DNA of 64,000 nt from NCBI GenBank assembly GCA_963736005.1, contig CAVTNB010000002.1, positions 32,001 through 96,000 of the forward strand. Reading direction: 5' to 3'. Source of the stretch: an uncultured Pseudomonadota bacterium (lineage in GTDB: Bacteria > Vulcanimicrobiota > Vulcanimicrobiia > Eremiobacterales > Eremiobacteraceae). The notes beneath the pieces were generated by a model that worked only from the letters and a program-made list of their open reading frames with translations, was not told the DNA's origin and searched no databases. The position numbers and the translations under genes are program-made. This document shows, one piece after another, positions 1 through 45,092 of this stretch (positions within the stretch are counted from its first letter, which is position 1; each line of letters begins with the position of its first letter).

Positions 1-249
1 GCTAAGGCAGCTCTTGACGATCGTCTTTGGCAGCGTCGTCGCGAGAAAGAAAGGCGCGATCTCCTGCAGATGTACGATGTGCACGTGCCCGCCACGGCGG
101 ATACGCGAGGCAAACCACAAGCAGCGGTCGGGGATCTGCACGTCAGCGCCTTGCGCGCGAAGCTCCTCCGCGAGCAGGTCCAGATAGGGATTGTAGGGCC
201 AGCGAAAGAGGAAGGCGCAGCGTAGCCATTGCCGCTGCGGATCAGACAT
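1..249 (-). CDS. Glycosyltransferase family 4, N-terminal part (runs off left edge)
   Basis: Manual translation from ATG at 249: MSDPQRQWLRCAFLFRWPYNPYLDLLAEELRAQGADV...HIVHLQ. The NPYxxLLxxxL pattern is typical of GT4 N-termini. The start overlaps the stop of the upstream gene. Confidence 0.65.
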   Translation of the reverse strand, partial: MSDPQRQWLRCAFLFRWPYNPYLDLLAEELRAQGADVQIPDRCLWFASRIRRGGHVHIVHLQEIAPFFLATTLPKTIVKSCLS

Positions 250-1208
250 ATTCACCCCCCTGCAACACCGAACCGCAAGCAACCACGGGGCGTGCTACCA
301 CCGCATCCTCGACCACCGAGTTGCGCTCGACATGAACGCCCTGCCAAAGAATCGACGATGAGATCGTGCTGCCCTCGTCGATGCGGCAGCCATCGCCTAT
401 GCAGGTCGGGCCGATCAGCCGCGCGCTGCTCGAAACCTGGGCAGCGCGGCCGGTAAGGACCCCGTCCACGACGTGTCGTCCTTCGCCGTAGCGCAGTTGT
501 ATGACGCCACGCAAGGCATCGAAGTGAAGGCGTCGATACGACTGTGGCAAGCCCAAGTCGCACCAATACACATCTTGGCGCATGCCGAAAAGGCGACCCT
601 TCGATGCCGCCATCGATGGAAACAGTTGCGTGCCGAAATCGTACACAATCCCATCGGGAATGCGTTCGAGCACGTGAGGTTCGAGGATATAGACACCCGT
701 GTTACCCCACGTGCTCTTCTCAGTTCCCTTCGCCGGTTTCTCTTGGAAGAGCTCGATGCGGCCGCGCGCATCCGTGACGGCGACGCCGCAACTGCTCGGA
801 TCGCTCGTCGGCGCGAGCACGATCGTCACCTCGGCACTTTTTGCCTTATGAAATTCGAGCGCCGCTGGGAGATCTGCCATCACGATGGTGTCGCAGGCCA
901 CGACCACGAAGGCCGCGTCAAAGTGCGATGCCGCTTTCTTCACGGCTCCTGCGCTACCACTTAACTTCTGCTCGCGTAGATACGCAAGGTGAACGCCGAA
1001 GCGAGATCCATCGCCTGCATACGCTACGATCGCATCGGCGAGGTAATGGACATTCATCGTGATGTCGCGGATAGCTTGGCGTCGAAAGCTGCTCGATGAC
1101 GTGCGCCATGACTGGCCGGTTAAGCAGCGGAACCAGCGGCTTCGGCAGGTTGCGAGTGAGCGGATACAATCGCGTGGACAGTCCGCCCGCCAGGATCATT
1201 GCTTGCAC
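242..1208 (-). CDS. Sugar-phosphate nucleotidyltransferase (mannose-1-P guanylyltransferase/HddC-like) with C-terminal beta-helix; one frameshift near 1075
   Basis: VQAMILAGGLSTRLYPLTRNLPKPLVP in one frame; FQEKP, NTGVYIL and WCDLG in ORF 242..1057. Confidence 0.88.
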
Positions 1209-1325
1209 GAGTGATGCGCCGAGCTCAGAGCAAGAAAAGGGCGCCGAGTCGGCGTCTTTTAGTAGGACCATGTTTAGTCCCATGGTCCCTTTATCCTCGA
1301 CCAGATCCTACGATACGCTTCCCGG

Positions 1326-1980
1326 GTGATAGTCCGCGATGACGACGCCGGTAGGGGCACTGCGCAGCTCGCCGTTATCGACGAGTATGTGTGCGCTGTG
1401 TCGCACGCGCTTGGGCAACTCTCGCGACAGCAGGTCTCCGACGTTGTGGATGCGCTCTTTGCGTGCTGGCAGCACGCCGGCTGCATTTACCTTGTGGCAA
1501 CGGCGGCAGTGCCGCCACAGCATCGCATATGATGAACGACTTGATTCGTGGCACGTGGCTGGAAGGAATGCGTTCCATTCGCGCGATTGCGCTGACCGAC
1601 AACGTTCCACTTATGACCGCTATCAGCAACGATACGCAATACGACCGCATCTTCTCCGACTTGCTCGAAGCGCTGCTGCAAACCGGACGACGTGGTCATT
1701 GCAATTTCGACTTCCGGCAACTCTCCCAACGTCGCTCCGGGCGGTGGCAGTCGCACAACGCCGCAAAGCGCGCGTGATTGCACTGTGCGGCAATAAGATC
1801 AGCCGCCTTTGGACGCAGGCCGATATCGCCGTGACCATTCCAGCCGACCTTGTGGGCCAACAAGAAGATGGGCACATGGTCGTCAACCATGCGGTCGCGC
1901 TCGCATTACGCCGGCGCATCGAACTGAGAGCGCGAGTAAGAGCGTCTGAGTGTTGCTTGCTTCCTAAGAGTATAGGGTAA
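1326..1980 (+). CDS. gmhA: Phosphoheptose isomerase (SIS domain), several frameshifts
   Basis: CGNGGSAATASHMMNDL, ALTDNVPLMTAISND, ISTSGNSPN (manual reading) and QQEDGHMVVNH are spread across three frames. Confidence 0.8.
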
Positions 1981-2744
1981 GACCGCCGTCCACGAAGACG
2001 GTTGATCCAGTCTGATAGCGCGCCGCATCCGAAGCGAGCCAAGCCACCAACGTGCCTATCTCTTCTGGTTGCGCCATCCGATGTAGTGGAATTTTTTCGA
2101 GAAGTTGGTCGCGCAACTTCGGTTTTTCCCAGAGGTTCTCGTTCATCGGTGGTTTGCACCACCCCGGGCGCGACCGCGAGGATCCGCACACCGTGCGGGG
2201 CCGCCTCAAGCGCGGCCGTTTTGGAAAGCATGGAGAGCCCGGCCTTGGCTGCGGCATATGCGCTGAAGCCTTTCCATGGCATCGTTTCATGGACTGACGT
2301 GACGTTGATGATCACGCCGCTGCGCCGCGCAATCATATCGGCGAGTGCTTGTTGCATGCAGTAGAATGCCCCGCACAAATTGACTTCCAGCACGCGCAAC
2401 CAGTCCGAGCGGTTAGCATCCCACACGAGGTTGGGAGGACCATCGATGCCAGCATTGTTGATCAGCACGTCCAGCCCCCCGTAACGGCTTCGGACCATCT
2501 GAAACATCCGCTCAACCGCATCCGCTTGCGAGACGTCCGCCGCAATCGAGAACGAATCCGAACCGAGGTCGCGACATCCTTGCACTACCGCCTCTGCTGC
2601 TTGCGCGTTCGTTACATAGTTCACGGCTACGTCAGCTCCGTTCGTGGCCAAACTCCGTGCGATCGCCGCTCCAATGCCGGTGTTGCCGCCAGTCACGAGC
2701 GCGCGGCGGCCTTTCAGACTGCTGCTGGTTGCATCGGGCGTCAC
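1964..2744 (-). CDS. SDR oxidoreductase (glucose 1-dehydrogenase-like), frameshift near 2150
   Basis: TGGNTGIG, NNAG and YAAAK motifs; C-terminus IPLHRMAQPEEI...TGSTVFVDGG in the alternate frame. Confidence 0.88.
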
Positions 2745-3649
2745 GGCGCTAGCCGGACCCGATGACGCAGCATGCTAAAGAACCCGCGCCAATACCAGAA
2801 TGTCCAAAAACGATGATAGGTGGCAAACTCGACTTGCTCAGACGTGGCAAGGCGCAATACGCGCGCTGCTCGCAAGAACGAAGGTGCGACTCCTCGGATG
2901 CCGAGGATCGCGGCTAGCGTACAGGACTTTCGGAAATCCCAGCGAGCGATGTCGGGATAGCGCAAGTACATGTCGGCTGCGCCCTGCCCGTACGTCCACG
3001 CCTGCCGAAGCAAGGCGCTGCGGTCGTTGCGATTTTTGTGAAACAGCACCGCATCGCGTGCATAGGCAATTTCACCTGGGTAGGCGCGTAACAAGCGAAG
3101 CGAAAAGTCAACGTCCTCTGCCGTGGGCATATCTTCCGCCCAGCCACCGATCGCGAGGGCGGCCCCTCGCCGCACCGCCATGTTGAGAGATGGCGCAAAC
3201 GGGAACGGCCTGCGTTCGATGGCGCGCTGGGAATAATTCAATCCCGCCGCGGCGCAGTAACGTTCCTCCGCTGTCTCTGGTTGAAAGACCAGCGTGTTAC
3301 CGACAGCAATCGTCACGTTGGCGTCGTCAAATACGCCGGCGAGGTGCGCGAGCCAGCGACGAGTCGGCAGAGTATCGGCGTCGAGGTACACGATGATGTC
3401 ACCGCGCGCATGCCCTAGGCCGCAATTCCGGGCCGCACCCGCCCCTGGCTTTTTCTCCTGCAAGAACGTCACAGGGAATGATCGGACGATGTCGGGCGTC
3501 TCATCGGTTGAATTGTTGTCAACGACGATGAACTCAAAGTCCCTGCCATCGATCCCGGTCTGGGCGAGCAAGCCGCCAAGTGTGTCAGCGATGGTCGCGG
3601 CACCGTTATAGACCGGCACCACGACACTAACGGAGCTCGCGCTTCTCAC
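2741..3649 (-). CDS. Glycosyltransferase family 2
   Basis: VSVVVPVYN, VVDNNSTD, ARNCG, YLDAD and EDVDF motifs. Probable GTG start overlaps the kinase TGA. Confidence 0.9.
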   Translation of the reverse strand: MRSASSVSVVVPVYNGAATIADTLGGLLAQTGIDGRDFEFIVVDNNSTDETPDIVRSFPVTFLQEKKPGAGAARNCGLGHARGDIIVYLDADTLPTRRWLAHLAGVFDDANVTIAVGNTLVFQPETAEERYCAAAGLNYSQRAIERRPFPFAPSLNMAVRRGAALAIGGWAEDMPTAEDVDFSLRLLRAYPGEIAYARDAVLFHKNRNDRSALLRQAWTYGQGAADMYLRYPDIARWDFRKSCTLAAILGIRGVAPSFLRAARVLRLATSEQVEFATYHRFWTFWYWRGFFSMLRHRVRLAP

Positions 3650-4628
3650 TGCAGGCAACGGTCGAGCGCCTCCAGGCATTCATCGTCGTGAAACGCGTTC
3701 TCCCCAATGGAAAATTCAATGCCTCGCACGTGTCCTGCGAGTTGCGCGACTGCTCGAAGAGAACGCGCAGCTTCGCTCCTCTCAGTGGGAACGACGGTTT
3801 GCTGCACGAGCGTGTGAAAAATCTCGTCCGGACCGAGGGGCCGCGAACTCGATAGCGCTTCGGTCCGAGTTTGCGCTGCAGGCGGACGACGTGCGTCGGA
3901 ACTCCATCGCGTTCCGTCCTGCCCGGCCAAATGTCGTGCAATGGACACCTTTCCGCTTTTCGGTCCACGCGGAATAGGCCGGCAACAACCAGAGGTCGCC
4001 AACTTCCGGGAACCACTGGCGCGTGCGCGGGTGCAGGTTCAATGAATGAAGCACGGCAGCAAGGCGGGGTCGACCATCCACGATGCGCAGCAACAGCTTG
4101 TCATCGCCCAGCGTGCGCCAGCCGGCTCGCATGAGGCCCGCGGTCAACGTGCTCTTTCCCCCTCCGCTCGGCGCGCACACGATGATGCAGCAGCCGCCAC
4201 GAGACAGAGCACCGGCATGCAGCGGAATCCAGTCAAGACAGCGCCAGCCTGTAGTGAGCACTAAGACGAGAAAGTCTTCCAGCTCTTCCAGATCGGCAAG
4301 TGAGGTCGGAACGTTCATGTGCCAGCGGTCGACGCTCGCACTCCGCACAAGCGTTAGATCCCCACCCGAACTCGAGGTTGCGATGAGTCCATCGGGGCTG
4401 CGGCAGACCGCCATGCGCGAGCACCGCAAGTACGAGCTGTCGACCATTGGGGTGCATTCGACGGTTTCGTGGACATGAGAGTTCGATGGAACGATGCGGC
4501 GGGTCCCAACGCACATCATACATGCCAAGTGTCGACGACAGCCGTTCCCGCAAGCGAGCGGATTCGCACTGAAGTCGTACATGTAATGGCCCGCAGAAGA
4601 ACTCGAGAACGGAGTGCGCAATGACCAT
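3646..4628 (-). CDS. HprK-related P-loop kinase, two frameshifts (about 4470 and 3950)
   Basis: LHAGAL...APSGGGKSTL...GWRTLGDD matches the HPr kinase-like His, Walker A and DD motifs. N- and C-termini lie in ORFs 4233..4628 and 3646..4002. Confidence 0.8.
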
Positions 4629-4646
4629 AGCCGCTCTTTGTTCGAA

Positions 4647-5042
4647 TTACTCCGCGAGTGGGATACTCGGGTCAAACGCGCTGATGATAACGCGCTGCAA
4701 CGGCTGCGGCTGCCGTTCGATGTGCGGCTTTTCCCACGGCCCCTCAAACTTCACAGCTGCGCCACGCCCTGTCACGTCGCGTCTTTCCAAGATAGCGTGA
4801 GTCGTGAGTTGACCGATAAACTCGTCGATAGGGGTATCGTCCTGCGAGCCCCATCGTCGGCACTGGTCCTTGACGTCTTGGAGCGCTGTGCCATCTTCCG
4901 CAAGTTGCAAAATCGCCCAGCCCGACGCGTTCACCCGATAAAAATACTTGGATCGAAGATCAAGCAGGACCGCCCCATGCCCGAGCACGGTCGCCACGAC
5001 GTCGGCGCTCATCCCTACATATTCTTTCAATTGCACAGACAT
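4647..5042 (-). CDS. PqqD-family / RiPP recognition element (RRE) protein with C-terminal extension
   Basis: GAVLLDLRSKYFYRVNASGWAILQLA...IDEFIGQLTTHAIL is the PqqD fold pattern, followed by about 45 extra residues. Confidence 0.85.
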   Translation of the reverse strand: MSVQLKEYVGMSADVVATVLGHGAVLLDLRSKYFYRVNASGWAILQLAEDGTALQDVKDQCRRWGSQDDTPIDEFIGQLTTHAILERRDVTGRGAAVKFEGPWEKPHIERQPQPLQRVIISAFDPSIPLAE

Positions 5043-5065
5043 TGTTACGAGCCCTTAAAGAGAAT

Positions 5066-5120
5066 GCGGCATCCGGATGCCGCTTCATGAGCCTGAGGAT
5101 TAGCCATTTGCATTGTACCA
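5066..5120 (-). promoter_or_regulatory. Extended -10 promoter (TGGTACAAT) and 18-bp perfect palindrome upstream of the PqqD gene
   Basis: TGGTACAAT on the minus strand at 5120-5112; GCGGCATCCGGATGCCGC at 5066-5083. Confidence 0.5.
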
Positions 5121-5253
5121 TTGGCCTTGCTGCTCAGGATACGACCTACGCCCTTCCTTGTGAGGCTTTCGGTCCCGCAGGGTGGCGGCGCGCCACGTAA
5201 GGACGCGGGCGATGAAGCCGACTGCACTGTGGAACGTGGCACGCATGAACCCT

Positions 5254-6738
5254 TCAGTTCCTGGGTGCAGCCAATGATCGGCTCGCGGGCGCTGTGCATA
5301 GCGCTCGGTCGTTTCCCGGCCAGCTTCGCTGCGAAAGCAAGTTTCGACCAGTCCCCGAACGACAGCGGATCGCCTCTGGCAGATCTTCTCGGCCTATCAA
5401 CCAGCTCACGTACCGCCGCACTGCTGGTGATTCGGGTTTTTGCATTCTACCGATGCGGGCTGCTAGAGCGAGGGCGCTCGACAAGCGCACGGGTTCCCAG
5501 GACTCCCGGGCACAGAATTCTTCCATTTCCTCAAGAAGTTCTGGCTGACTGCGCAACATCTGCGCAAGCAGGACCACATCCCGAAGTTTGTATACGCCTA
5601 TGGAATGTACGCACAGGTGCAGAGCCGATCCGAATGTATCGAGACAACCGGCTGTGCCCGCAGCTGTTGTTACGGAAGTGATGTGCGATTCAAGTGTGTG
5701 CCAATCCAATATCTGCGACAACCTTCGCGGTGGCGCGAGCGCGAAGTGCAGTTCGACGTTGAGGCCTTTGGTCGGTGGCACAAGCGGCGCGGCATGATGA
5801 TGATACGCAAGATACAGCGAGACATCTTGCTCGCACCCATATTGGTAACCGTGCCGGCGCAGCGCATCGGCACCGGCCGAAATCAAGTCAGCGGGAAGCA
5901 AGATGTCGATATCGGTGCTGGGGTGGAGCTCCATGCCTGGCAATCCAGCGAAAAGACGGGCCGAGCTTTTCAAAAGGGCGAAAGGTAGACCTTCGTTATT
6001 GAAAATGTGAACGATTTCTTCGATCTGCTTTCTGGTGCTGTCGCTCTCGTGCTCGATCCTGAGGGTTGAGGTCTCGAGGCCTCGAGCGAGCGGCTCGTAG
6101 TGGGAGAGATCGACCAACTTCCCGCAGCGCATGCCTTCTAACAAAATGCTCGTACAGCCGTGGCGCAACGCTATCCCGATGAGCGACGAGGCACTGCACG
6201 AGTCGATGGCTGCTCCTAGTGCTACCCAGTCGTCATTGACGATTGCGGTCATCGCATCCAAGAGAGCCTTGAAAGGGAACGACGCCGGATACACGCCTGC
6301 CAACTGCAATGCACCGTGACCCATACTCCGAAGCCGCACGGCAAGGGCCCGCAGCGAATGCGAACGCGCCGCAAGGGCGCTACGCGCGCTAAAATACTTG
6401 GCATTGAGCGGACGCGCAGTCGGTGAATCGTCGCTATAGACGGCGTCCAGCTCGCCAACTATTTGTCGCTCCTTTACGGCAGACACCGCAAGCGGATAAG
6501 CATCTCCGCAGACGATCCAACTCCCATTACGTTTCCCTATGATGCGACGGAGCACCACGTCCCCGCCAAGATCGAGCGCGACGATTGTGTTCTTTGCGGT
6601 GTGCGGATCAAAGGGGGCGAGCGACAGCACCATTGGCTCGCGCAGCAAGGGACACATCGCGCGCCCCCTCACAGCCACGCGCGGCCGCTGCTGCGCGATA
6701 GTCGCGAGCCGAAGCGCCGTGCTTTCGATACTCCCCAT
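5254..6738 (-). CDS. Nucleotidyltransferase family protein (NTP_transf_5-like) with N-terminal S24/S26 peptidase-like domain; may extend to about 5100 via a frameshift
   Basis: FALLKS...STDIDILL...VELHF in the C-terminal domain. N-terminal VRGRAMCPLL...VVLRRI...IVCGD...QIVGEL. ATG at 6738 overlaps the gmhB TGA. Confidence 0.8.
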   Translation of the reverse strand: MGSIESTALRLATIAQQRPRVAVRGRAMCPLLREPMVLSLAPFDPHTAKNTIVALDLGGDVVLRRIIGKRNGSWIVCGDAYPLAVSAVKERQIVGELDAVYSDDSPTARPLNAKYFSARSALAARSHSLRALAVRLRSMGHGALQLAGVYPASFPFKALLDAMTAIVNDDWVALGAAIDSCSASSLIGIALRHGCTSILLEGMRCGKLVDLSHYEPLARGLETSTLRIEHESDSTRKQIEEIVHIFNNEGLPFALLKSSARLFAGLPGMELHPSTDIDILLPADLISAGADALRRHGYQYGCEQDVSLYLAYHHHAAPLVPPTKGLNVELHFALAPPRRLSQILDWHTLESHITSVTTAAGTAGCLDTFGSALHLCVHSIGVYKLRDVVLLAQMLRSQPELLEEMEEFCARESWEPVRLSSALALAARIGRMQKPESPAVRRYVSWLIGREDLPEAIRCRSGTGRNLLSQRSWPGNDRALCTAPASRSLAAPRN

Positions 6739-7292
6739 CAAGGGTGCAGCGCGGTTGACACGCGCAGGTCTCCCACGATACCCAAAACGGCGGCGCTCAG
6801 ACTGTCGTCCAGTGCCGGATCGACAAAGTGTGCTTTGCAACCCGCGGCCCGTGCGGCCTCCATGTCTGAAAGCGAGTCCCCGAGGAGGTGACATTCAGCG
6901 AGGTCCAAACCAAAATCGCGTGCTGCTGCCTGCAACATCGCGGTCCCTGGTTTTCGACACGAACAAATAACTTCCGGTGCGTGTGGGCAGCAATACCACG
7001 CGGTGAGGTTGATGCCGTGGGAGCCAAGCGACCAGCGCATGCTCTCCATGATGCCCACCAAACCAGCTTCGTCAAGCATACCCTTCCCGACGCACGCCTG
7101 GTTGGATACAATGATGAGCGGAAAATGGGCAGCTTGCAGCAGCGATAATCCTGCGATGGCATCGCGTCGCCATCGGAACTGCTCCCAGCGCGTGACGTAC
7201 CCGCCTGGGATTTTTTCGTTGATCACGCCATCGCGATCGAGAAAGACGCACCGGTGAAGGACACACCGATCTGACGCTTGCCAACAAATCAT
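6738..7292 (-). CDS. gmhB: D,D-heptose 1,7-bisphosphate phosphatase (HAD IIIA)
   Basis: FLDRDGVIN, VSNQ, CPH...CSCRKP and GDSLSD motifs. Confidence 0.9.
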   Translation of the reverse strand: MICWQASDRCVLHRCVFLDRDGVINEKIPGGYVTRWEQFRWRRDAIAGLSLLQAAHFPLIIVSNQACVGKGMLDEAGLVGIMESMRWSLGSHGINLTAWYCCPHAPEVICSCRKPGTAMLQAAARDFGLDLAECHLLGDSLSDMEAARAAGCKAHFVDPALDDSLSAAVLGIVGDLRVSTALHP

Positions 7293-7445
7293 GAGCGACT
7301 GCTTCTCTAAATGCCACCCGAGTGTTGCTGCTTTCGACTTGGCGGCACGCTGCCGAACAGCCTTAGTACCTTGAGCGGCCGCACCAGGGCCTTGCGTCCC
7401 TATAGCATCACTTGCGCCGCTAGGGTAGGCAGTTTTGAGTGCACC

Positions 7446-8933
7446 TCAGGCGCGCTTTTTGTGCAATTGCGTGGCAACCACGATGAGCACTACCAGCACG
7501 ATCAGGAGCGTTATGTAAGCGTCTTCTCTCCTCAAGGGACGGCCAGGTTCGTCGACGGGCTGTTTCATAATCTCTGGCGCAGGCAATACGAAGTTGGTTG
7601 GGAGCAACATCGGCCGGATTGGCCGTTGCCGGAAATTGAATTCCTCGTACAAGTCCCCGAGTACTGGCTCTCGTTCGCGAACGCTCGGGCGTCGATCCGG
7701 ACGGCCATCCGTTTTTGGATCGAGCCGTTGCGAGCTCAGAAACACGTCTTCAATGAACTTAGCATATGCATCGAAACTGAGTACTTGGTGATCTATAAAG
7801 CCGCGTCTTGCATACGGACTAATGAGCAAGCCAGGAACGCGCGGGCCGTAACCATTGACATCGACGCGAGGTGGTGCAACGTGATCGTAAAAGCCTCCCC
7901 AATCATCCCACGTCAGAAAAATGGCGGTGCTATTCCATTGTGGCCCTTGCATTGCCGCGTTGATAAGGCTCGTGACATACGCTTGTCCATCCTTCACATC
8001 ATAAGGCGGATGTTCGCTGAAACGGCTGTTAGGACAAATCCAGGAAACTGCGGGCAAATGCCCGCTCTTTGCCGCCGCAAAGTAATCTGCAAGTCCGCGA
8101 ATACTTGCTAGCTCATGATCTTCTCTCACGGTTTCAAACCATGGCAAGGGATTCCAAATTGACGGCGTATCCGCTGATTGGGAAACGTGCGGCGTTGCCA
8201 TCGCATCGTCATCTTCTGTGTCGGGTGCGAAGCCGCCAAACACATAGTAAGCCCAGCTCACATGGTTCTTATGAAGCAGAAACGTCAAATCCGTCCACGA
8301 GTACGTCGGCGACGGGTTGTCGCTATTCACGTCGACCGCGTTGCTGCAGGACATGGGATCAGCAGAACCACACTTGGCCGACCACTCAGAGACGAGGAAC
8401 AGGTGCGCCGGTAAGCTCCAGCTTGCGATCGATTCGAACATGTGATCTTGCAGCACAAAATACTTGGCATATGCCCAATAATTGGGAATCTCTCGGCCGT
8501 CGTGATAGCCCATCACATCTTTCCCCGAGCCGCCACACGCCGGATCTAAGATTCTGCGGCAGCGCTTCAACCTGCGTTGGGCCTGCGCAATAAATCCATC
8601 CATCTTGCCGCCGTCGATGTCGGCCAAGGCTGCGTCATGCCCATGGGGACCGCCGTAATTCACAACGCTTGCGTCGTGGAAGGGTGGAGTGCACCCTGTA
8701 TTTTTTGGATCAGGTACACATTGCACGGGCTTGCCGTCTCGAAAGCGGATTCCGTCCGCTCCAGGATACGTTCCGAAATAGCTATCAAACGAACGGTTCT
8801 CTTGGACAATAATAATGATATGTTCTATCCTGCCTGTCGCGCTGTGCACCCCCGCGCCTTGGGCGGCAGAGCTCTCAACGGACCCACATGCAAAGAGTAG
8901 GGTCCCCACGAGAAGAGGTGCGACATATTTCAT
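7446..8933 (-). CDS. Secreted phosphoesterase (phospholipase C/acid phosphatase family) with C-terminal membrane anchor
   Basis: [35 protein letters not shown] and GPRVP motifs; N-terminal signal with LFAC. Confidence 0.9.
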
Positions 8934-8941
8934 TCGGCCCC

Positions 8942-9904
8942 TCAACGGTGCTGCTGCGCTAGGAGCGCCTGCGCCGCGGTTGTATCTGGCAGGACGCCAG
9001 TTGAGTAGATGGAGTCCAAACCAAAAAGCGCCACGAGATCGAAGGCCCGTTGCAGATCAGCTCCGCTAACTTCGTCTTTCCACGCACTCACTAAATTTGC
9101 TCCGGTTCGGATGGCGGAAGTCCGGCGCGTTGTGGATGACGGTTTGGCATACGCCATCTGGACGTTGTCACTCATCGGTTGACCAATGAACTCGAAGAGA
9201 CGGGCCATTTCTGCCTGCGGGTGGAGGAGCAGATTTTCATAGAACATGAGGTGCGTGTTGTTTGGCGTGAGCTCGCGCAGCGGCACGTAGTTCTGAATGC
9301 ACCAATTGAGAACGTGCTGGTCCCATTCCGGGCCCGATCGCGCAGCCACCATGCGGTCATAGAATGGTGCAAGCTGATCTTCGATGAGCTCTCGCTGCAG
9401 GAAGTATTCCTGAAAAACGTTCGGCAGTCGCCGTTGGATGGTCGAGTAGGCGACAGCGGCGGGGTGCCGCATGACAAAGATGATTGGTACTTCGGGATGC
9501 CGGTCGCGCAGCCAATGCAACCATAGGTTTGCCCGACATTCCTTGATCAGGCGCTTGTGAAAGACCAGGCGATTATACGGCTGCACCGAGCGATTGTACT
9601 CGTTCGAGCGAATCCAATTCCAAACGCGATGCCCACGCAGCGTGCGCTCAACGGGAACGACGTAGCGCTCTTCGCTGTTTCCTTTACGCAGATACAGCAC
9701 CGGTCGTAAGGCCGGCCATACCGCCGGGCCAAAAGGTTCATGGTAATAGCGGTAACTATGGTCGTGGTTGACCAATTGCGCTAGCCACGTGGTGCCTGAG
9801 CGGCCGCTGCCCGCGATGAACACTGCGTGCTGCGCGCCCAACCGTCGCTCGAATACTGGCAACCAGCCCCAACCTGGGCGGCGTTTCGTCCGTTTCACGC
9901 TCAA
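8942..9904 (-). CDS. Sulfotransferase family protein
   Basis: [12 protein letters not shown] (PAPS-binding loop), [13 protein letters not shown] and FYENL motifs. Confidence 0.85.
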
Positions 9905-10022
9905 CCGTCTTGTACTATAATGGCGAGGCCGTCAAAAAAACTTGACGACTTGGGTATCGTATTTGTAGTTCACCAGCTGATAGCAATCCACTGCTGGGGC
10001 AGCATGCTGATATGATTTCATA

Positions 10023-11186
10023 ATGCGCGTAGCTTATCTGACCCGGTTTGACGTTACGGATCGTGCCAGCGTGCCCGCGTTGGGCGGCGCGGGCTATGCC
10101 AGCTATTACATCGCCCAAACGCTAGAAACCATGGGTGTGTCCCTGACGCGTGTGAACGGTCTGCCATCAAGCCTCTCGCTCGCTACCCGGCTTACGTCCG
10201 CGTTTTACCGCCGTGTCTATCACCAAAACTACAACATCGCAGCCAACCCAACAATCATCAAACGCCAAGCGAAGTACGTAGCGCAAAAGCTGGCTGCGGC
10301 CGACTACGACATTATTCTGACGCGAATACTCTTACCACTTGCACACCTCCACGTGGACAAACCAGTTGTCGTGTGGACAGACGGAAGCGCGCGCGGCCTG
10401 TTCGATTTTTATCCGCAGCTTACAAACCTATCCGAGCGCAGCAAGCGTGAGACCCTTGCTATGGAATTGGCTGCCCTCGAACACTGCAGCCTCATCATTT
10501 ATAGCTCTGAATGGGCGGCAAGCCACGCGCCAGATCGCATCGACCGAAGAAAAATCAAAATTGTTCCTTTCGGCGCCAACTGCGAATGTGACCGCACGGT
10601 AAGTGATATTCAAGCCATCGCTGAGATGAAACCTATGCGACCGTACAGGTTGCTCTTCGTGGGCGGCGCATGGAATCGCAAAGGTGGTCTGATTGCGTGC
10701 CAGGTGGCGAAGGCTCTCTCTGACGTTGGGTACTCCACAACCCTCACCGTGATCGGCCGCAAGCCGGACATCCCGAAGGAGTTTGGAGGGGTTGTTAACC
10801 TTGTGGGCTTCCTCGACCAATCTCGCGCACAGGGGCAACAGCGGTGGAGTGAGCTCATGCGTGAGTCGCATTTTTTGATTCTGCCGAGCAGAGCGGACTG
10901 TTCTCCGCACGTGCTGGCGGAAGCCAACTCCTTTGGACTGCCCTGCTTGACGACGAACGTCGGCGGAATCCCCGGGATCATCCGTGATGGGGTCAATGGC
11001 AAGCTCTTCCGTCTTGAAGCCGATCCTCGGGATTACCGCGACTTTGTCGTGAGTCAGCTCGAGGACCCACAACGGTACCGGCGCCTCATGCTGGCTTCCT
11101 TTCAAGAATTCCAAACTCGCTTGAATTGGCGCGTCGCGTGCCAGCGAGTTGGGGCGTTGCTCGAAGGTTTGATGACTACGATGTAG
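10023..11186 (+). CDS. Glycosyltransferase family 4
   Basis: LLFVG...RKGG and ILPSRADCSPHVLAEANSFGLP..TTNVGGIP motifs. Confidence 0.9.
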   Translation: MRVAYLTRFDVTDRASVPALGGAGYASYYIAQTLETMGVSLTRVNGLPSSLSLATRLTSAFYRRVYHQNYNIAANPTIIKRQAKYVAQKLAAADYDIILTRILLPLAHLHVDKPVVVWTDGSARGLFDFYPQLTNLSERSKRETLAMELAALEHCSLIIYSSEWAASHAPDRIDRRKIKIVPFGANCECDRTVSDIQAIAEMKPMRPYRLLFVGGAWNRKGGLIACQVAKALSDVGYSTTLTVIGRKPDIPKEFGGVVNLVGFLDQSRAQGQQRWSELMRESHFLILPSRADCSPHVLAEANSFGLPCLTTNVGGIPGIIRDGVNGKLFRLEADPRDYRDFVVSQLEDPQRYRRLMLASFQEFQTRLNWRVACQRVGALLEGLMTTM

Positions 11187-11667
11187 CTTCGAGAGGTGTC
11201 AGCGGCACTTCTTTGATGCGGACATTGAAGATCTCGTCCGGCGCGTCGAAGTGTTGTCCCCCAACGGATATCCAGGCGTGCCCGCGCAATCGTTCGTGGG
11301 GGTTGGGTTGCTCTTCAATGCCAAAATGGATCTTCACCGGCTGATCGCCGGCGTCAAGAAAACGGTAGAGGGTCAGGGCACGGACGTAGCAGTTATCTCG
11401 CGAACGTAAAAACGGTAAGCGCAAATTCAGGGCACGCAAACGCGCGATGCGTTCTTGACTCTGCTCGATGCTGGGCGCTGCCGGCCGACGGCACTCTCGC
11501 AGATCCGCGAGAAAAGACCGGAGGTTTCGTCGCCTCAACAGAGCGGGCACACGCCACATGAAGTAGCCGATCTGCAAGGCGAGCCAAAGGTCGTCGGGTC
11601 GACGGACGAATGCGCGGTAGCGCTGCGCAAAACCACGTGGCGTCCACTTGGGCGCGAGCTTGTTCAC
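11176..11667 (-). CDS. Lasso peptide biosynthesis B2-like protein (transglutaminase-like cysteine peptidase)
   Basis: NCYVRALTLY...VKIHFGI...GHAWISVGG...D gives a Cys/His/Asp triad pattern. GTG start overlaps the GT2 stop (GTGA). Confidence 0.85.
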   Translation of the reverse strand: MNKLAPKWTPRGFAQRYRAFVRRPDDLWLALQIGYFMWRVPALLRRRNLRSFLADLRECRRPAAPSIEQSQERIARLRALNLRLPFLRSRDNCYVRALTLYRFLDAGDQPVKIHFGIEEQPNPHERLRGHAWISVGGQHFDAPDEIFNVRIKEVPLTPLEATS

Positions 11668-12551
11668 CACCGCGCACGCTCTCTTCGATCGAGCTGAGTT
11701 GCGACGAAGCCAACCCGCTGGGCAAGTTTCTTCACAAACATGCCGCGTGCATACAAGAACCGCTCGTTGTTGGGAACGCGCCATGCGGACAAACTCAGGC
11801 GGCCGATATCCGCCCACTCTTTGAGCTCATCGCCGATGGTCCATCGACATTCGTCGCGATGGTGCAAGACAAATTGTGCGTAGCCTTTGCCGTACGAATA
11901 TTGCTGCCGCCAGAAACCCTTCCAATCTGCGCGATGCCGATGAAACACGACAGCCCGCGAAGCATACACGAACTCGCCCGGCTGCGCTTTCAGAATGCGG
12001 TTGTGCAAGTCGCAGGCCTCGTACGATGTATATCGTTCGTCAAACCCGCCTGCGTCTTCCAAAACGCTTTTCCGATACATGAGGTTGCTCGACGGCGCAA
12101 AAGGAAACTTTGGATGAGAGAGATGACGTTGCGCGTCCAAGCTCCCGATGAGATCGCAAAAGTGTGCAGCATCAGTCGTTGAATCGAGGCCGAGCGTACG
12201 ACCGCCGGCGCCGATACACTGCGCGGTCGAGGTGGACGACTGCGCGACGGCGGCGAGGAGTGAACGCAGCCACGATCGGGAAGGCACGCAATCGGCATCC
12301 GTAAACGCGATCCACTTACCTCGTGCCACAGCGACGCCAGCGTTGCGCGCAGCTCCTGCTCCCTTGTTTTGCTGGCCGAGGACGCGGACATCAAAGGATT
12401 GCGCCAGTGTTTGTGTGCCATCACGCGACCCGTCATCGACCACGATGATCTCGTACAAGTCTTCGCAGTCTTGGTTGCACAGTGCATTGAGGCACTCGGC
12501 CAAAGTCTTTTCGGCATTGAATGCGGGAACAACGACGCTTGCCAGTGTCAC
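11664..12551 (-). CDS. Glycosyltransferase family 2
   Basis: ASVVVPAFN, VVDDGSRD, ARNAG, FTDADC and GGFDE motifs. Confidence 0.9.
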   Translation of the reverse strand: MTLASVVVPAFNAEKTLAECLNALCNQDCEDLYEIIVVDDGSRDGTQTLAQSFDVRVLGQQNKGAGAARNAGVAVARGKWIAFTDADCVPSRSWLRSLLAAVAQSSTSTAQCIGAGGRTLGLDSTTDAAHFCDLIGSLDAQRHLSHPKFPFAPSSNLMYRKSVLEDAGGFDERYTSYEACDLHNRILKAQPGEFVYASRAVVFHRHRADWKGFWRQQYSYGKGYAQFVLHHRDECRWTIGDELKEWADIGRLSLSAWRVPNNERFLYARGMFVKKLAQRVGFVATQLDRRERARW

Positions 12552-14540: not shown

Positions 14541-14888
14541 ATGCCAACCGATTTTCGCGACGGTCGCACGTTCCCGCGTCGCGGTCGCCATCCGTTAGGG
14601 AGTTTCTTGTGGCTAGCCCGGGTTTTCGATAAGGCTCGAGCCTCCAAGGCGGGCACCATCTACGATTATATCTATCCGTGCCCCATGGACCTTGGCATGT
14701 TCGAACGGTGGGGGATCACCGTCGAGGAATTTGAGGGAGCCATGAGCGAGCATGGCGACGATCAAGCACTGCGCCAATGGGCTCAATCACGCATCGCTCA
14801 GCAAGCTTGCGACGCCGCAAACTCGTGGTTGGTCACGGAAAAGTTCGAAAATCTCGACCGCCAAGATCGCGAGGAGAACGTTTTCTGA
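14541..14888 (+). CDS. DUF5069-like small protein
   Basis: PR...LG..WLARVFDKARA..AGTI.DYIYPCPMD pattern. Confidence 0.7.
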   Translation: MPTDFRDGRTFPRRGRHPLGSFLWLARVFDKARASKAGTIYDYIYPCPMDLGMFERWGITVEEFEGAMSEHGDDQALRQWAQSRIAQQACDAANSWLVTEKFENLDRQDREENVF

Positions 14889-17310
14889 GACGATCGGCGA
14901 GAACGCTGGCTTGAACCGAGATCCCGTCGGAGATGACGGATACCCCACCGTCGAGATCTGTCCGATAGACTTGCGCCCCGGCAGTCTTAAGAGCAGCTAA
15001 TGTGAGCGGGCTTGGGTGTCCGAAGACGTTGTGCAAGCCGCATGAGATGATCGCGATTTTCGGATGCACGGCCGCCAGAAATTCTGGTGTCGACGAATAA
15101 GCACTTCCGTGATGACCGACTTTGAGGATGTCGGCACGCAGATCCGCGCCACCGTGCGAAAGCAGACGAGCTTCAGCCTCTGATTGCGCGTCACCGGTGA
15201 GCAGCATCGCAACCTGTCCGAAGGTCACTCGAAGCACGACCGAATTATTGTTGATATCCGACGATGTTCCAGTAATCAACGGCAACTCGGGTGCGAGTAC
15301 CTGAACGTGCGTAACTGTGCCGAGATCGAACGCCTCGCCCCGTTGCGCTCGGATCCACTTGATGTGACGGTCGTGTATGACTTCAAGTGTGCGATGATAT
15401 GCTGGACCCGAATAGAGTTGCGCTGAGTCGTACACCCTATCAACGCGCTCACGCGAGAGGATGACGGGGAGACCACCAACGTGGTCGCCATGTGGGTGCG
15501 TCAGCACGACTGCATCAAGATGCAACACCCAATGCCTCAAGAGAAATGGCATGACCGTCCGCGTCGCGAGGCGATCGCCGATGGGAGCGGCCACCACAAA
15601 ACCGGTGCTCGTGCGCTCGAGGCGACCTCCACTATCGACAAGCATCGCGTGACCTCCCGGAGCACGCACGAGCAGGCAGTCGGCTTGACCGACGTCGATG
15701 GCGTCAAGCCGCACGCGCTGATCGAGTCTTTGCGCGATTCCAGGAATGCAGTATATAAGGAAGAGCGCGAATGCGACTGCTACGCCCCACTTGGCTATGA
15801 GCCTCCGCGGAATTTGGTATTTGAACGCCGCGGCGAGCGCTCCGAGTGCCATCCAGTACGCAATCAGGAATGCGTGAGTCGGCGGCGGCACATCGATGTG
15901 GCTACCAGGCAGCGTCGCGAAAAATCGGACCGCGTCGATCACAAAGAGCAACCCCCACCACACGAGGTTGCTCAATGGAAGAGCAAGGGGCGGACAGGCG
16001 AGCGAGGCGGCACACAAGCTCGCTCCAACCGCCATGATGAGCGCGATGAGCGGAACGACAACGGCATTTGCCAGCACCGCGTAGGGCGTGAATGCGTTAA
16101 AGTAAAGCGCTTGAAACGGCCACAACGCGATCTGCACCGCCAGGCTCGTTCGCACGACCTCGACAACGACGCGCGGAAGTCTTCCATCCTCTCGTAATCC
16201 AAGCGAGCTCAACACTGGACTCACGAGCGCGATGCCGACGACGCACGCAAACGACATCGAGAACGACGGCGACAGAAGCGCGAGTGGGTGAGGCAACGCG
16301 ACCGCGCTCGCCGCCGCTGCAAAGATCGCGCTCGGCGTCCTCCCCCGGCCAAGTTCGAGGGCGACCGTTCCTGCGGTGAGCATGGTTGCCGCGCGCAGCG
16401 TTGGCAGATGCAGGCCTGCGAGCGCCGCATACAACCATGCGCCAACGAGCATGAATCCGATACGAGCGGCTCGAGCGATCGGAAAACGCGAGAGAATCCA
16501 AGCGAGCAACCCAGCCATGATTCCAAGATGCAGACCCGCCGTGGTCAGCACGTGGACGGTGCCCGTGTCCGAGAATTCCTGACGCAAGGCGGCCGGCAAA
16601 TTACCTCGGTCGCCCCACAGAATGCCTTCGAGCACCGTTGCCTCGAGAGGCGGGAGCCGGCTCTCAATCGCATCTGCGCCTGCCAGCCGTATCCGCGCCC
16701 ACCATGCTTCCCACCCCGTGCCGATGCCAAGCCTGCGTATATCCTTGGCACGGTGGGCGGCAATCACGACGTCGACGCCCTGTTCGCTCAGCAGGTCTCG
16801 CTCGGCTGGTTCACCTTCGTTTCGCGCGCCGCCGGGCAGATCGAGACGCCCCCGAATCGTCACGCGTTGTCCAGCCACTTGGCCAACGTCAGCCGCCGGA
16901 AATGTCACGAGAGCAACAGTCCCGACAAGATGGATGGCGGCCTCGCTCGCAGGCGAGCTCACGTGAAGGACACGTACTCGAAGCGAACCCGAGTCGGTAT
17001 ATCTTGGACGCTCGAGAGCAAGCGCTTCGATCACAACGTGATGGCCGTCAAGCGCCGCGTAAGGCCTATGCTCCACCCGCCATACCGCGAGCGTTGCAGC
17101 ACCGGCTCCAATGCCAAACGCGAGGATCAATGGGATGAGAAACCTTTTGATGCTTGTTTCCGTTAGAAAAACAAAGGCGACGGCCGCAGCAAGTGCTGCC
17201 GCTGCAAATCCCGCTGATACGCTCGCAGCTGCAACCACACCAAGGCCGTACAACGACACAAGCAACGCAAAACTGTGACCGCGCCACAGCGAGTCGAACG
17301 ATGCGCGCAC
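14833..17310 (-). CDS. comEC: DNA internalization competence protein ComEC/Rec2
   Basis: GTVHVLTTAGLH competence domain; DVGQAD, THPHGDH, NNNSVV and KVGHHGS in the MBL domain. Confidence 0.93.
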   Translation of the reverse strand: MRASFDSLWRGHSFALLVSLYGLGVVAAASVSAGFAAAALAAAVAFVFLTETSIKRFLIPLILAFGIGAGAATLAVWRVEHRPYAALDGHHVVIEALALERPRYTDSGSLRVRVLHVSSPASEAAIHLVGTVALVTFPAADVGQVAGQRVTIRGRLDLPGGARNEGEPAERDLLSEQGVDVVIAAHRAKDIRRLGIGTGWEAWWARIRLAGADAIESRLPPLEATVLEGILWGDRGNLPAALRQEFSDTGTVHVLTTAGLHLGIMAGLLAWILSRFPIARAARIGFMLVGAWLYAALAGLHLPTLRAATMLTAGTVALELGRGRTPSAIFAAAASAVALPHPLALLSPSFSMSFACVVGIALVSPVLSSLGLREDGRLPRVVVEVVRTSLAVQIALWPFQALYFNAFTPYAVLANAVVVPLIALIMAVGASLCAASLACPPLALPLSNLVWWGLLFVIDAVRFFATLPGSHIDVPPPTHAFLIAYWMALGALAAAFKYQIPRRLIAKWGVAVAFALFLIYCIPGIAQRLDQRVRLDAIDVGQADCLLVRAPGGHAMLVDSGGRLERTSTGFVVAAPIGDRLATRTVMPFLLRHWVLHLDAVVLTHPHGDHVGGLPVILSRERVDRVYDSAQLYSGPAYHRTLEVIHDRHIKWIRAQRGEAFDLGTVTHVQVLAPELPLITGTSSDINNNSVVLRVTFGQVAMLLTGDAQSEAEARLLSHGGADLRADILKVGHHGSAYSSTPEFLAAVHPKIAIISCGLHNVFGHPSPLTLAALKTAGAQVYRTDLDGGVSVISDGISVQASVLADRLRKRSPRDLGGRDFRTFP

Positions 17311-18516: not shown

Positions 18517-18598
18517 CCGCGACATTGCCCTTTCGCGAAGACATTCGCGCGACGACATTGCCCTTTCGCGAAGACATTCGCGCGACGACGCTGGCTAC
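18513..18598. repeat. GTAG-bounded REP-like element containing a 33-bp tandem duplication
   Basis: CGACATTGCCCTTTCGCGAAGACATTCGCGCGA twice (18520-18552, 18553-18585), flanked by inverted GTAGCC/GGCTAC. Confidence 0.9.
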
Positions 18599-36936: not shown

Positions 36937-39462
36937 TTGAGCCCGAAAGAAGGCACGCCACGCGACGGCCGCGACGGAAAAGCGCGCGGCGATATGACCT
37001 TCGAGACCTACGCCCACAGCACGCCATCAGAGCGTTTGCTCACCGTCAACGTCGAAGACGAAATGCGCCGCTCATACCTCGATTACGCCATGAGCGTGAT
37101 CGTCGCGCGAGCGCTTCCTGACGTCCGCGACGGCCTCAAGCCGGTGCACCGGCGCATCCTGTACGCCATGTCTCAGTTAGGGCTCAATCCCGACAAGCCG
37201 CACCGCAAGTGCGCGGGAACCGTCGGCGAGGTGCTCAAGAACTACCATCCGCACGGCGACATCTCCGTCTACGATGCACTCGTGCGTATGGCGCAAGACT
37301 TCAGCCTGCGTTACCCGCTCATCAACGGCCACGGCAATTTCGGATCTATTGACGGCGACCCGCCCGCAGCCATGCGATACACAGAGGCACGCTTGGCGCC
37401 AGTGGCGCTTGAAATGCTCGCCGACATTGACAAAGAGACGGTCGACTTTGTCCCCAATTACGACGCGTCGAGCCGCGAGCCGTCACTATTGCCTGCGCGC
37501 CTGCCCAACTTGCTCGTTAACGGCTCATCTGGCATCGCCGTGGGCATGGCGACGAACATTCCGCCGCACAATCTCACCGAGATCTGCGACGCAGTCTGCG
37601 CGCTCATCGACGATCGGGATCTCAAAGACAAAGAACTGCTTAAGATTGTGACCGGGCCCGATTTCCCAACCGGCGCGCTCATCTTAGGGCGGGAAGGAAT
37701 CCGCCAGAGCTATTTGACCGGCCGGGGCGCCATCACGATGCGCGCCAAGCATGAATTTGAGGAAATTCGAGGCGGTCGGCAAGCCATCATCGTCACGCAG
37801 ATTCCGTTCCAGCTTAACAAAACGAAGTTGATTGAAATCATCGCTGAATTGGTCACCAGTAAGCGCATCACGGGCATCGCTGACTTGCGTGACGAGAGCG
37901 ACCGCAAAGGCATGCGCCTCGTCATCGAACTCAAGCGCGAGGGACAACCGCAGCTCGTCCTCAACCAACTGTACAAACATTCGCCGCTGCAGTCGTCATT
38001 CGGGGTCAACAACGTCGCACTGGTCGATGGCCAGCCGCGCACGCTCACGCTCCGCCAAATATTGGATTACTACATCGAGCACCGCAAAGTGGTGGTCGTA
38101 CGGCGTTCGCAGTACGAGCTGCGCAAGGCCAAAGAGCGCGCGCACATTCTCGAGGGCTACCGCATTGCCCTCGACCACATCGATGCGATCATCAAGCTCA
38201 TTCGCGGATCTGAAACGACCGAAGAAGCCCGCGATGGCTTGATAAAAAAGTTCAAACTCACGGAGATCCAGGCCAACGCCATCCTCGATCTGCGCTTACA
38301 GCGCCTCGTCGCCCTCGAACGCCAGAAGATCGAAGACGAATATGTTGCCGTGCTGAAAACGATAGCCGGACTGGAAGAACTCTTGCGCAGCGAGCGCCGC
38401 ATCTATGCAGTGGTCAAAGACGAAGTTGTTGCGCTTAAAAAGAAGTACGGCGACAAGCGACGCACGCAGATCGTCGAGGCCGAAGGCGAGTTTGAGATCG
38501 AGGATCTCATCGCCGATACCGAAGTGGTCGTGACGGTCACCGCGGGTGGGTACATCAAGCGGGTGAACGCCGATACGTTCCGCGCGCAAAATCGCGGCGG
38601 CCGCGGCGTCATGGGGCTCGCCTTGAAGAAGGAAGACGTCGTGCGTCACATCTTCTCGGCGACGACGCACCAGCACGTCTTGTTCTTCACCAATCGCGGT
38701 CGCGTGCTGCGCTTGCGCGCGCATGAAATTCCAGATGCCTCCCGCCAAGCGCGCGGCACTGCCCTCGTCAACTTGCTGACGCTGCCCCCGGGCGAAACTG
38801 TCACGACGGTGTTGCCGGTGCGCAAGCTCGGCACCGAAGACTTCCTCGTTATGGTGACCAAGCGCGGCTACATCAAGAAGACGGCCTTGACCGAATTCGG
38901 CAACGTACGCCGGTCAGGACTCATCGCTATTAGCCTCATGCCCAACGATGAGCTTTTGAGTACCGTCCTCACGGACGGGAAGGCCGAACTCTTGCTAGCG
39001 ACCAGCGCGGGCTTCGCCATCCGCTTCGACGAGAAGACGGTGCGCCCCATGGGCCGCGCTAGCCGCGGCGTGCGCGCGGTCCGGCTTGGCCAGCGGGATG
39101 TCGTTCAGGCCCTCGACATCGTCGGCAAGGATCGCCGCGAAGTTTTGGTGATCACAAGCAAAGGATACGGGAAACGAACCGTCATCGATCTCTATCGAAA
39201 GACCAATCGCGGTGGCAAGGGAATCAAAGCATTCAACCGCACGGCAAAGAATGGGGAGATTGTCGATCAGTTCCTCGTCAAGCCGGACGACGAGATCATG
39301 CTCATCTCGGCGCACGGCATCGTCATCCGGATGAAGGTTTTTCAGATCCGCGAAACTGGGCGCTCAGCCCAGGGAGTCCGCGTGATGAAACTGGACGAAG
39401 GAGATTCCGTCATCGCGGCCGCGAATATCGGTCAACGGGCTGAAGAAGCCGAACGCCTCTAA
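36937..39462 (+). CDS. gyrA: DNA gyrase subunit A
   Basis: [30 protein letters not shown], GyrA box QNRGGRG and CTD repeats. Confidence 0.97.
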
Positions 39463-39482
39463 AGAATCAAGGAGAAAACCAC

Positions 39483-39818
39483 GTGAGTGACATGCTGCAA
39501 ATAGACCAAAATAATTTTCAAACGGAAGTGCTTCAGGCCGCCCCACCGGTGCTCGTGGATTTTTGGGCACCATGGTGCGGGCCGTGCCGCATGGTTGCTC
39601 CAATCGTGGATAAAATTGCCCAAACGTATGCCGGGCGGCTCAAAGTCGTCAAGCTCAACACCGATGACAGTCCGAGCATCGCCGGTAAGTACGAGGTCAG
39701 CGGGATCCCCGCGTTGATTCTCTTCAAGTCGGGCGAGCCGGTGGACCGAATTGTCGGCTACGTCCCTGAGAAACAACTCGCCGCGATGGTGGAGAAACAT
39801 CTCGCCCCCGTGGCGTAG
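39483..39818 (+). CDS. trxA: Thioredoxin
   Basis: DFWAPWCGPC motif; AAGGAG RBS. Confidence 0.97.
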   Translation: MSDMLQIDQNNFQTEVLQAAPPVLVDFWAPWCGPCRMVAPIVDKIAQTYAGRLKVVKLNTDDSPSIAGKYEVSGIPALILFKSGEPVDRIVGYVPEKQLAAMVEKHLAPVA

Positions 39819-39849
39819 CACCGACGAGTCGCGCGAATGTCTTCGCGCG
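39815..39849 (+). repeat. REP-like element after trxA
   Basis: GTAG (trxA stop) followed by CGCGCGAA-TGTC-TTCGCGCG, the reverse complement of the core of the 18.5-kb repeat. Confidence 0.75.
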
Positions 39850-39864
39850 CGAGATAACGCCAAT

Positions 39865-45071: not shown

Positions 45072-45092
45072 CAGCGGACCACCCTAATCACA

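Follow-up and report, generated by a model that had tools for sequence, protein, structure and literature searches.

The first 12,551 positions of a 64,000-nucleotide stretch (the window) from an uncultured bacterium of the Eremiobacteraceae (assembly GCA_963736005.1, contig CAVTNB010000002.1, positions 32,001 to 96,000) probably encode a pathway for a linear phospho-glycopeptide. The product would be a RiPP (a peptide made by the ribosome and then modified post-translationally), with a precursor that is fused to its own RiPP recognition element (RRE). The locus is fairly likely to be a rearranged version of a self-contained RiPP-type cassette that is conserved and often includes an exporter. 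The cassette consists of the RRE, an HprK-like kinase, family 2 glycosyltransferases (GT2s), a lasso-type B2 cysteine peptidase, and an NTP_transf_5 nucleotidyltransferase (NTase). A linear phospho-glycopeptide was already proposed when the sequence was first read, and it is the best reading after follow-up. The original prediction also stated that the window has no free precursor, which overlooked a precursor that appears to be present at the C-terminus of the RRE. The family is real and conserved, and it is apparently uncharacterised.

The Tail of the RRE

The missing precursor appears from the sequence to be the C-terminal tail of the RRE itself, with a lasso-type leader (WxxPxI) followed by a core. 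The gene (4647..5042, minus strand) encodes 131 residues and ends with WEKPHIERQPQPLQRVIISAFDPSIPLAE and a stop codon. Residues ~5-91 make up the RRE, 89-102 a variable linker, 103-120 the leader, and 121-131 the core. The recognition motif W103-x-x-P106-x-I108 is at 4719..4736 (minus strand), and the near-invariant core SAFDPSIPLAE with its stop codon is at 4647..4682 (minus strand). Ser121 is the predicted phospho-acceptor. The PqqD profile matches 4647-5042 with 20 bits, below its cut-off, and the RRE fold is backed by a structure model.

The tail is conserved in close and distant homologs. A first homology search found 285 homologs, and among the 120 of them that were listed W103, P114, L115, S121, A122, F123, D124, P125, P128, L129, and E131 are invariant. 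This search favours shared words, and it was repeated without word seeding. The 150 representatives then listed include 45 tails of the FDP type found here, 14 DPIHD, 7 LDPP, 3 GE, 62 short, and 19 other tails; a DP motif is common to the FDP-type tails and the DPIHD and LDPP sister tails. The 45 distant tails were selected by a pattern that demands DP and a final E, and positions outside the pattern are also conserved: the second core Pro and the leader Leu in all 45, and leader prolines in 44 and 41. The leader residue W103 is found in 28 of the 45 full-length-tail cluster representatives and the leader-motif P in 41. In the close family of 94 genes D and E are present in every gene and Ser121 in 93. 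No free copy of the tail was found in the genome, where a tail profile matches only two fused copies.

Selection acts on the peptide, since synonymous sites are as variable in the core as elsewhere. Across 94 distinct genes, a comparison that excludes the tail-less gene of locus L137, the core has an amino acid identity of 0.89, followed by the leader (0.55), the RRE (0.50), and the linker (0.13); the core value is an upper estimate, because core-containing patterns were used to find the loci. The four regions are alike at four-fold third positions, with differences of 0.57-0.66. An RNA-level cause of the tail conservation is ruled out, because synonymous sites vary freely.

In a sister family, an RRE with a DPIHD/DPVHE-type tail lies beside a kinase, an NTase, and glycosyltransferases (L140, 8476-13287; L152, 5896-11857, on the Crinalium plasmid NC_019735.1). 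B2 was not seen in these two loci. Plasmid searches with two distant relatives gave no full-length FDP-type match and one match of the DPIHD type.

Structure Models

The models place the leader motif on the RRE and tail residues 114-121 against the B2 peptidase. The best fold match of the RRE model is 5v1u, the TbiB1-leader complex (Z 11.1, root-mean-square deviation 1.9, 80 aligned), and the profile match to 5v1u has an E value of 2.6e-7. The predicted local distance difference test (pLDDT) score is 96 at residues 101-110, with an extra strand at 108-110. A three-chain model of B2, RRE, and tail scored 0.76, versus 0.55 for the best control, in which B2 was replaced. The mark for such complex scores is reached by 116 of 157 solved pairs and 2 of 215 mismatched pairs. 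The runs share at least 61% of contacts, and partner pLDDT is at least 69. In this model tail residues 103-111 are paired with strand 33-41 and helix 71-84 of the RRE (the beta3/alpha3 pocket), and residues 114-121 lie in an interface to which B2 contributes residues 90-99 and 128, which flank C94 and H131. As modelled, the WxxPxI motif would dock in the leader pocket of the RRE and residues 114-121 would lie against B2. The kinase, modelled from the intact copy in the relative L016, has the HPrK/P fold (1ko7, Z 14.7, root-mean-square deviation 2.0, 129 aligned).

The Cassette in Other Genomes

The set of RRE, kinase, GT2, B2, and NTase is conserved in many other genomes, bearing out the co-occurrence on which the original prediction depended. 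Among 41 loci with at least 4.5 kb downstream of the RRE, the kinase, GT2, and B2 are each present in 40 and the NTase in 38. The kinase directly follows the RRE in 62 of the 68 loci having at least 1 kb. The common gene order is RRE-kinase-GT2-(GT2)-B2-NTase, with one to five GT2s per locus. A Wzx/Polysacc_synt protein is found in 18 of the 41 loci and an ABC-2 permease in 11, never both. The only locus of the 41 without the cassette, L137 (G160:C148), is also the one whose RRE has no core. The tail of this RRE homolog breaks off, and no cassette genes lie within ~10 kb on either side. Catalytic residues are retained: the Cys, His, and acid of B2 in 24 of 24 each, the His, GK, and DD of the kinase in 28 of 28, and the DxD of the NTase in 42 of 44.

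In the phylum, matches are present in 21 of 301 genomes, 19 of which match strongly. An RRE in a relative from the Vulcanimicrobiota (Candidatus Eremiobacterota) is 78% identical, and the same tail is present on a Limnocylindria protein. Cluster look-ups of homologs named one Limnocylindria and one Anaerolineae protein. Among Atlas clusters of look-alikes, Pseudomonadota and Verrucomicrobiota are commonest, on few records. The genome also has a second copy of the cassette, in the usual order and apparently free of frameshifts, at ~19950-25350 of contig C3 (L008, 7945-13352). It has an RRE-tail ending in PSVPLVE, a kinase, a GT2, a B2, an NTase, and a flippase-like gene.

In the window the copy is rearranged, with the GT2-B2 pair 6.5 kb upstream. 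The HprK-like kinase (3646..4628, minus strand) has five single-base indels here and is intact, with 325 residues, in L016; it matches the HprK-related model TIGR04352 at 45 bits (46.7 in one scan) against a cut-off of 200. One GT2, of a cassette-specific MftF-like group, is at 2741..3649 (minus strand), and the second cassette-type GT2, coupled to B2, is at 11664..12551 (minus strand). The best NCBIfam match of both is MftF TIGR03965, at 139.7 and 154 bits, below the cut-off of 280. The B2 peptidase (11176..11670, minus strand) has the triad C94-H131-D142 and matches Transglut_core3 (47.8 bits) and NF033537 (42.4 bits, cut-off 33). The NTase (5100..6741, minus strand) matches NTP_transf_5 (PF14907, 60.6 bits) and has the DxD motif, one indel near 5349, and an N-terminal S26/SpI-like domain.

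Several of these genes are frameshifted in this assembly. Thirteen single-base indels disrupt the kinase, NTase, short-chain dehydrogenase/reductase (SDR), GmhA, and pyrophosphorylase genes. Two close relatives, L016 and L018 (92.7% and 96.0% DNA identity), do not have these indels, and L016 encodes full-length proteins for the genes broken here. Comparison with the relatives suggests that the indels are likely sequencing errors; the reading of these genes as pseudogenes is disfavoured, since the indels are not shared by L016 and L018.

Related Systems

The system is most like the linear polyphosphorylated peptides (LPP; genes lppA-K-B-S-D-N) of Paenibacillus alginolyticus (Popov et al. 2026, PMC13381572). 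LPP clusters also have an RRE, an HprK-like kinase, and an NTP transferase without a cyclase, and they are often near polysaccharide genes. Both leaders carry [YW]xxP, a His at +8, and a Ser at +18; the LPP leader consensus is YxxPxVLxHQxIxFETxxS, and its Ser is the phospho-site (PMC13381572). In LPP clusters, found mainly in Bacillota, the RRE is discrete, the precursors are separate and vary in their cores, an SpI enzyme is the serine peptidase, and an MsbA-like protein is the exporter. Here the precursor is fused, the 11-13-residue core is invariant, B2 is the peptidase, GT2s belong to the fixed gene set, and a Wzx-like or ABC-2 protein is the exporter. Three features of LPP (an SpI peptidase, an RRE and precursor that are discrete, and a variable core) are absent here. 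The Ser-His-Asp of the SpI-like peptidase has no equivalent, as the S26 domain here is without the catalytic Ser and His. A RiPP family with kinase, RRE, and NTase and no cyclase is already known in LPP (PMC13381572); the novelty is the fused precursor, B2, and GT2s.

Lasso peptide clusters share other parts. Two lasso features, the cyclase and the ring acid, are missing here, and the RRE and the B2 triad are present. The Bsf lasso cluster of Bradymonas sediminis (Duan et al. 2023, PMC10368454) has B1, B2, kinase, and NTase, Ile/Val at leader position -2, and a phosphorylated Ser near the core N-terminus; it differs in having a cyclase and a free precursor and no GT2 among its seven genes. In pseudomycoidin and paeninodin (Zyubko et al. 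2019, PMC6993621) a kinase acts first and an NTase-dependent hexose is then placed on the phosphate, B1 and B2 are split, and paeninodin-type leaders have WxxP, as here. Their lasso ring, cyclase, C-terminal Ser acceptor, and free precursor set them apart.

The HPr-rel-A cassette (TIGR04352/TIGR04353) also has a PqqD-like protein adjoining an HprK-related kinase. However, the kinase here scores 46.7 against the cut-off of 200, and the RRE has no match at E 0.1 to TIGR04353, a tail-less model of 74 positions. Oversized proteins without a second domain make up 21% of PF05402 (PMC12710340). In the accessible parts of the literature searched, which includes PMC7470986 and PMC12710340, no natural fusion of an RRE to a precursor in the company of B2 and GT2s was found described. 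The tail motifs gave no match in the literature search.

Proposed Pathway

By analogy with the chemistry of LPP, Bsf, and pseudomycoidin, the kinase would phosphorylate or polyphosphorylate Ser121. This residue is taken as the phospho-site because the spacing of W103, Q/H111, and S121 equals that of the LPP consensus. W103 and S121 are 18 residues apart with His/Gln at +8, and position 111 is H in 31 and Q in 13 of the 45 distant tails. The NTase would be required for the first sugar on the Ser121 phosphate, as in pseudomycoidin, and the GT2s would extend the sugar chain on the phosphopeptide. B2 would then cut between V118 and S121 to give a linear 11-13-residue phospho-glycopeptide ending in FDPSIPLAE, which a protein of the flippase family or an ABC-2 protein would export. 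Each RRE molecule would serve once. Where B2 would cut is uncertain. The canonical W(-17) register is satisfied with V118 at -2, a position that has V or I in 41 of 45 tails; in an alternative register I119 at -2 fits the BsfA pattern.

Several points count against this linear phospho-glycopeptide. Ser121 is found in 34 of the 45 distant representatives, 8 of which have no Ser or Thr in the last 11 residues, and the strict invariants across the distant set are D-P, P, and the terminal E. An invariant core is unusual for RiPPs and would also fit a protein-binding motif. Tail residues 122-131 are outside the confident interface of the three-chain model, the three-chain job is unlike the calibration set of the tool, and the complex score may echo the solved B1-leader structures and so reflect likeness and not binding. 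LppN was without effect in a heterologous host (PMC13381572), which leaves PsmN as the sole basis of the NTase step. The NTase was not found in 3 of the 41 loci, and 12 have neither exporter. The loci are related (36 that were aligned form 31 groups at 90% and 17 at 60% RRE identity), and the cassette profiles were built from the same loci that were counted. The genome also holds eight free YxxP-type open reading frames (ORFs) that are possible alternative substrates, and the frameshifts in the window described above belong here as well.

Alternative Explanations

A rather unlikely alternative is that the tail is a ribosomal carrier or primer for glycans: a peptide-Ser-(P)P-oligosaccharide would be built in the cytoplasm, freed by B2, and moved by a Wzx-type flippase or ABC-2 protein for a surface glycan. 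The peptide would be a handle rather than the active product, a peptide counterpart of undecaprenyl-linked assembly, which we also consider improbable. The idea gains from the invariance of the core although the number of GT2s varies from 1 to 5, from the presence of either Wzx/Polysacc_synt (18) or an ABC-2 permease (11) but never both in the 41 loci, and from the position of several loci, including L049, L059, L064, and the window, among glycan genes. LPP clusters are also reported in capsule loci (PMC13381572). However, many copies of the cassette lie among unrelated genes and no polymerase or ligase was seen in them, a single-use ribosomal carrier would be costly, and no precedent was found in the literature searched.

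It is unlikely that the RRE carries the tail as a pseudo-leader or docking motif of its own, which would gate or stabilise the RRE and recruit enzymes, with the true substrate free and encoded elsewhere. Some RREs, such as LppB, are insoluble without leader, and the two DPIHD-family loci inspected have no B2. The genome also has eight scattered ORFs of ~30-35 residues with a common MYxxPxIxASxD leader and variable Cys-containing tails; the frames of these free precursor-like ORFs start near C1 265271, 267355, 663704, 675244, 999829, 1522845, and 1659999 and C3 104562. They are likely the precursors of an LPP-like cluster on contig C1. This suggestion that free substrates are used is further favoured by the window NTase, which groups with the S26-fused NTase of the same cluster (support 84, quick tree). 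Against it, the most conserved part of the tail lies beyond the RRE-binding strand and beyond the modelled B2 contact, and in 40 of 41 loci the cassette comes with a B2 whose triad is intact. Only two of 31 loci (L026 and L138) gave plausible free precursors by one motif, and L095 did so by a second. These free precursors are of the Tyr type and the fused leader is of the Trp type, and in Bacillota the W/Y difference marks separate pathways.

The LPP-like cluster is at ~995.5-999.8 kb of C1 (L141, 9555-13770) and has a free precursor-like ORF, two HprK-like kinases, an S26 peptidase-NTase, and a discrete RRE of 84 residues. Its S26 peptidase-NTase retains Ser and His; the S26-like domain of the window NTase is 37% identical and has Ala and Arg at these positions. 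An S26-like domain is present in 3 of 40 loci. The window NTase was probably recruited from the C1 cluster, since it groups with the C1 NTase at modest support. Similar ORFs of the MYxxPxI type are seen in L026, L095, and L138.

Modification of the core on its acids is very unlikely. The kinase or NTase would activate Asp124 or Glu131 as an acyl-phosphate or adenylate, for cyclisation onto the amine freed by B2 or for sugar attachment. This would give a use to an amine that otherwise has none known, and it would suit the D and E found in 94 of 94 close homologs, the DP motif of the DPIHD and LDPP sister tails, and the 8 of 45 distant tails without a core Ser or Thr. The characterised HprK-like RiPP kinases considered, however, act on Ser/Thr hydroxyls, Ser121 is present in 93 of 94 close homologs with spacing as in LPP, and the pattern that selected the distant tails itself demanded D, P, and E.

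A lasso cyclase was sought throughout the genome. None was found within 32 kb to the left of the window, which settles the leftward check and rejects a cyclase just past the left edge; the leftmost 14 kb were covered by the genome-wide and profile searches. The only full AsnB matches in the genome, at C2:180498 and C4:11226 (plus one weak match), are far away, and their best stretches score 249 and 220 bits, below the cut-off of 525 for a lasso cyclase, in agreement with the view that this is not an ordinary lasso cluster. A profile of these two AsnBs found none in 101 homologous loci plus flanks, a Pfam scan of 73 of 125 candidate neighbour ORFs found no Asn_synthase, and no match to PF00733 exists in 3 of 5 carrier genomes (92-98% complete). 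In none of three registers does an Asp/Glu occupy position 7-9 of the core; D is at 4, 5, or 6 and E is last. An ordinary lasso cluster with its cyclase in trans or missing from the assembly can be dismissed as extremely improbable, for although the genome is 84% complete and has two AsnB-family genes, both score far under the cut-off, the 3 carrier genomes are without PF00733, and no register of the core has a ring acid.

Free precursors were also sought. In 31 homologous loci 22 of 4843 short ORFs fit a lasso motif, and three, in L026 and L138, look real; L095 has a plausible free precursor by a second motif. Two candidate sources in this genome were rejected. The short ORF at 5045-5299, between NTase and RRE, lies in a stretch that the intact L016 NTase crosses in another frame. 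Of 535 short ORFs in C2:1-50000, a loose lasso motif picked out 2, and neither is convincing.

Genes of the Window and Its Surroundings

All of the genes of the original prediction are present at about the places given, as seen largely in a Pfam/NCBIfam scan, and the overlapping codons are present (gmhB/NTase 6738-6741; kinase/GT2 GTGA 3646-3649; GT2/SDR 2741-2744; GT2/B2 11664-11670). The list had omitted a phosphoesterase, the S26-like N-terminal domain of the NTase, and the fused precursor. The genes that appear to be local additions are a GmhB-like phosphatase (6738..7292, minus strand), a GmhA-like isomerase (1326..1940, plus strand; frameshifted, end approximate, identity confirmed on the intact copy in L016), an NDP-sugar pyrophosphorylase (242..1283, minus strand; one indel), a sulfotransferase (8942-9904, minus strand), the phosphoesterase/phospholipase C-like gene (7446-8945, minus strand), and a family 4 glycosyltransferase (GT4; 10023..11186, plus strand). 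These genes occur in only 2 of 40 loci, both close relatives of the window strain. The heptose and sulfotransferase genes, once counted as part of the system, would therefore be additions of this lineage, and heptose and sulfate as defining modifications are not supported. Decoration with heptose or sulfate in this strain is possible, without support from conservation. An SDR is at 1964..2744 (minus strand; one indel), and some SDR is near 15 of 40 loci, mostly distant homologs.

A GT4-type gene lies at the left edge (5' part at 1..282, minus strand) and continues beyond it. The fragment in the window has no Pfam match, and the call is made from the full ORF (L001). This gene leads into an exopolysaccharide-type locus, in which an ABC-2 exporter lies 0.8-3 kb past the left edge. 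Judged from translations, the ORFs listed over 18 kb on this side encode glycosyltransferases, sulfotransferases, and an ABC-2 exporter. In the same glycan locus, 3-4.5 kb to the left (L001, 13437-15269), is a frameshifted gene with 608 residues in L016 and no Pfam match at E 0.01; by eye it may be glycosidase-like. Farther to the right the window has a ComEC/Rec2-like competence gene (14833-17310, minus strand; by eye from translation), a perfect 33-bp tandem duplication at 18520-18589, and strong AT-skew excursions (+0.13 at 38001-40000 and -0.26 at 44001-46000).

Significance

A precursor inside the tail of an RRE escapes tools that seek short ORFs, and clusters with an orphan PqqD, a kinase, and a nucleotidyltransferase may have been passed over as a group. 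The putative substrate with its invariant 11-residue core, the adaptor, the kinase, the enzymes for the sugars, and a leader peptidase that is intact are packed in one small cassette, which opens the product to prediction and to a test by mass. A direct assay is also possible for the role of NTP_transf_5 proteins such as LppN and BsfN in phosphopeptide pathways. The system bears on why phosphopeptide pathways travel with glycosylation genes. If the peptide were a glycan carrier, this would account for the frequent location of phosphorylated lasso and LPP genes in polysaccharide loci. If the product is a linear phospho-glycopeptide, the cassette would give many uncultured bacteria a so far unstudied way of making a small linear glycopeptide.

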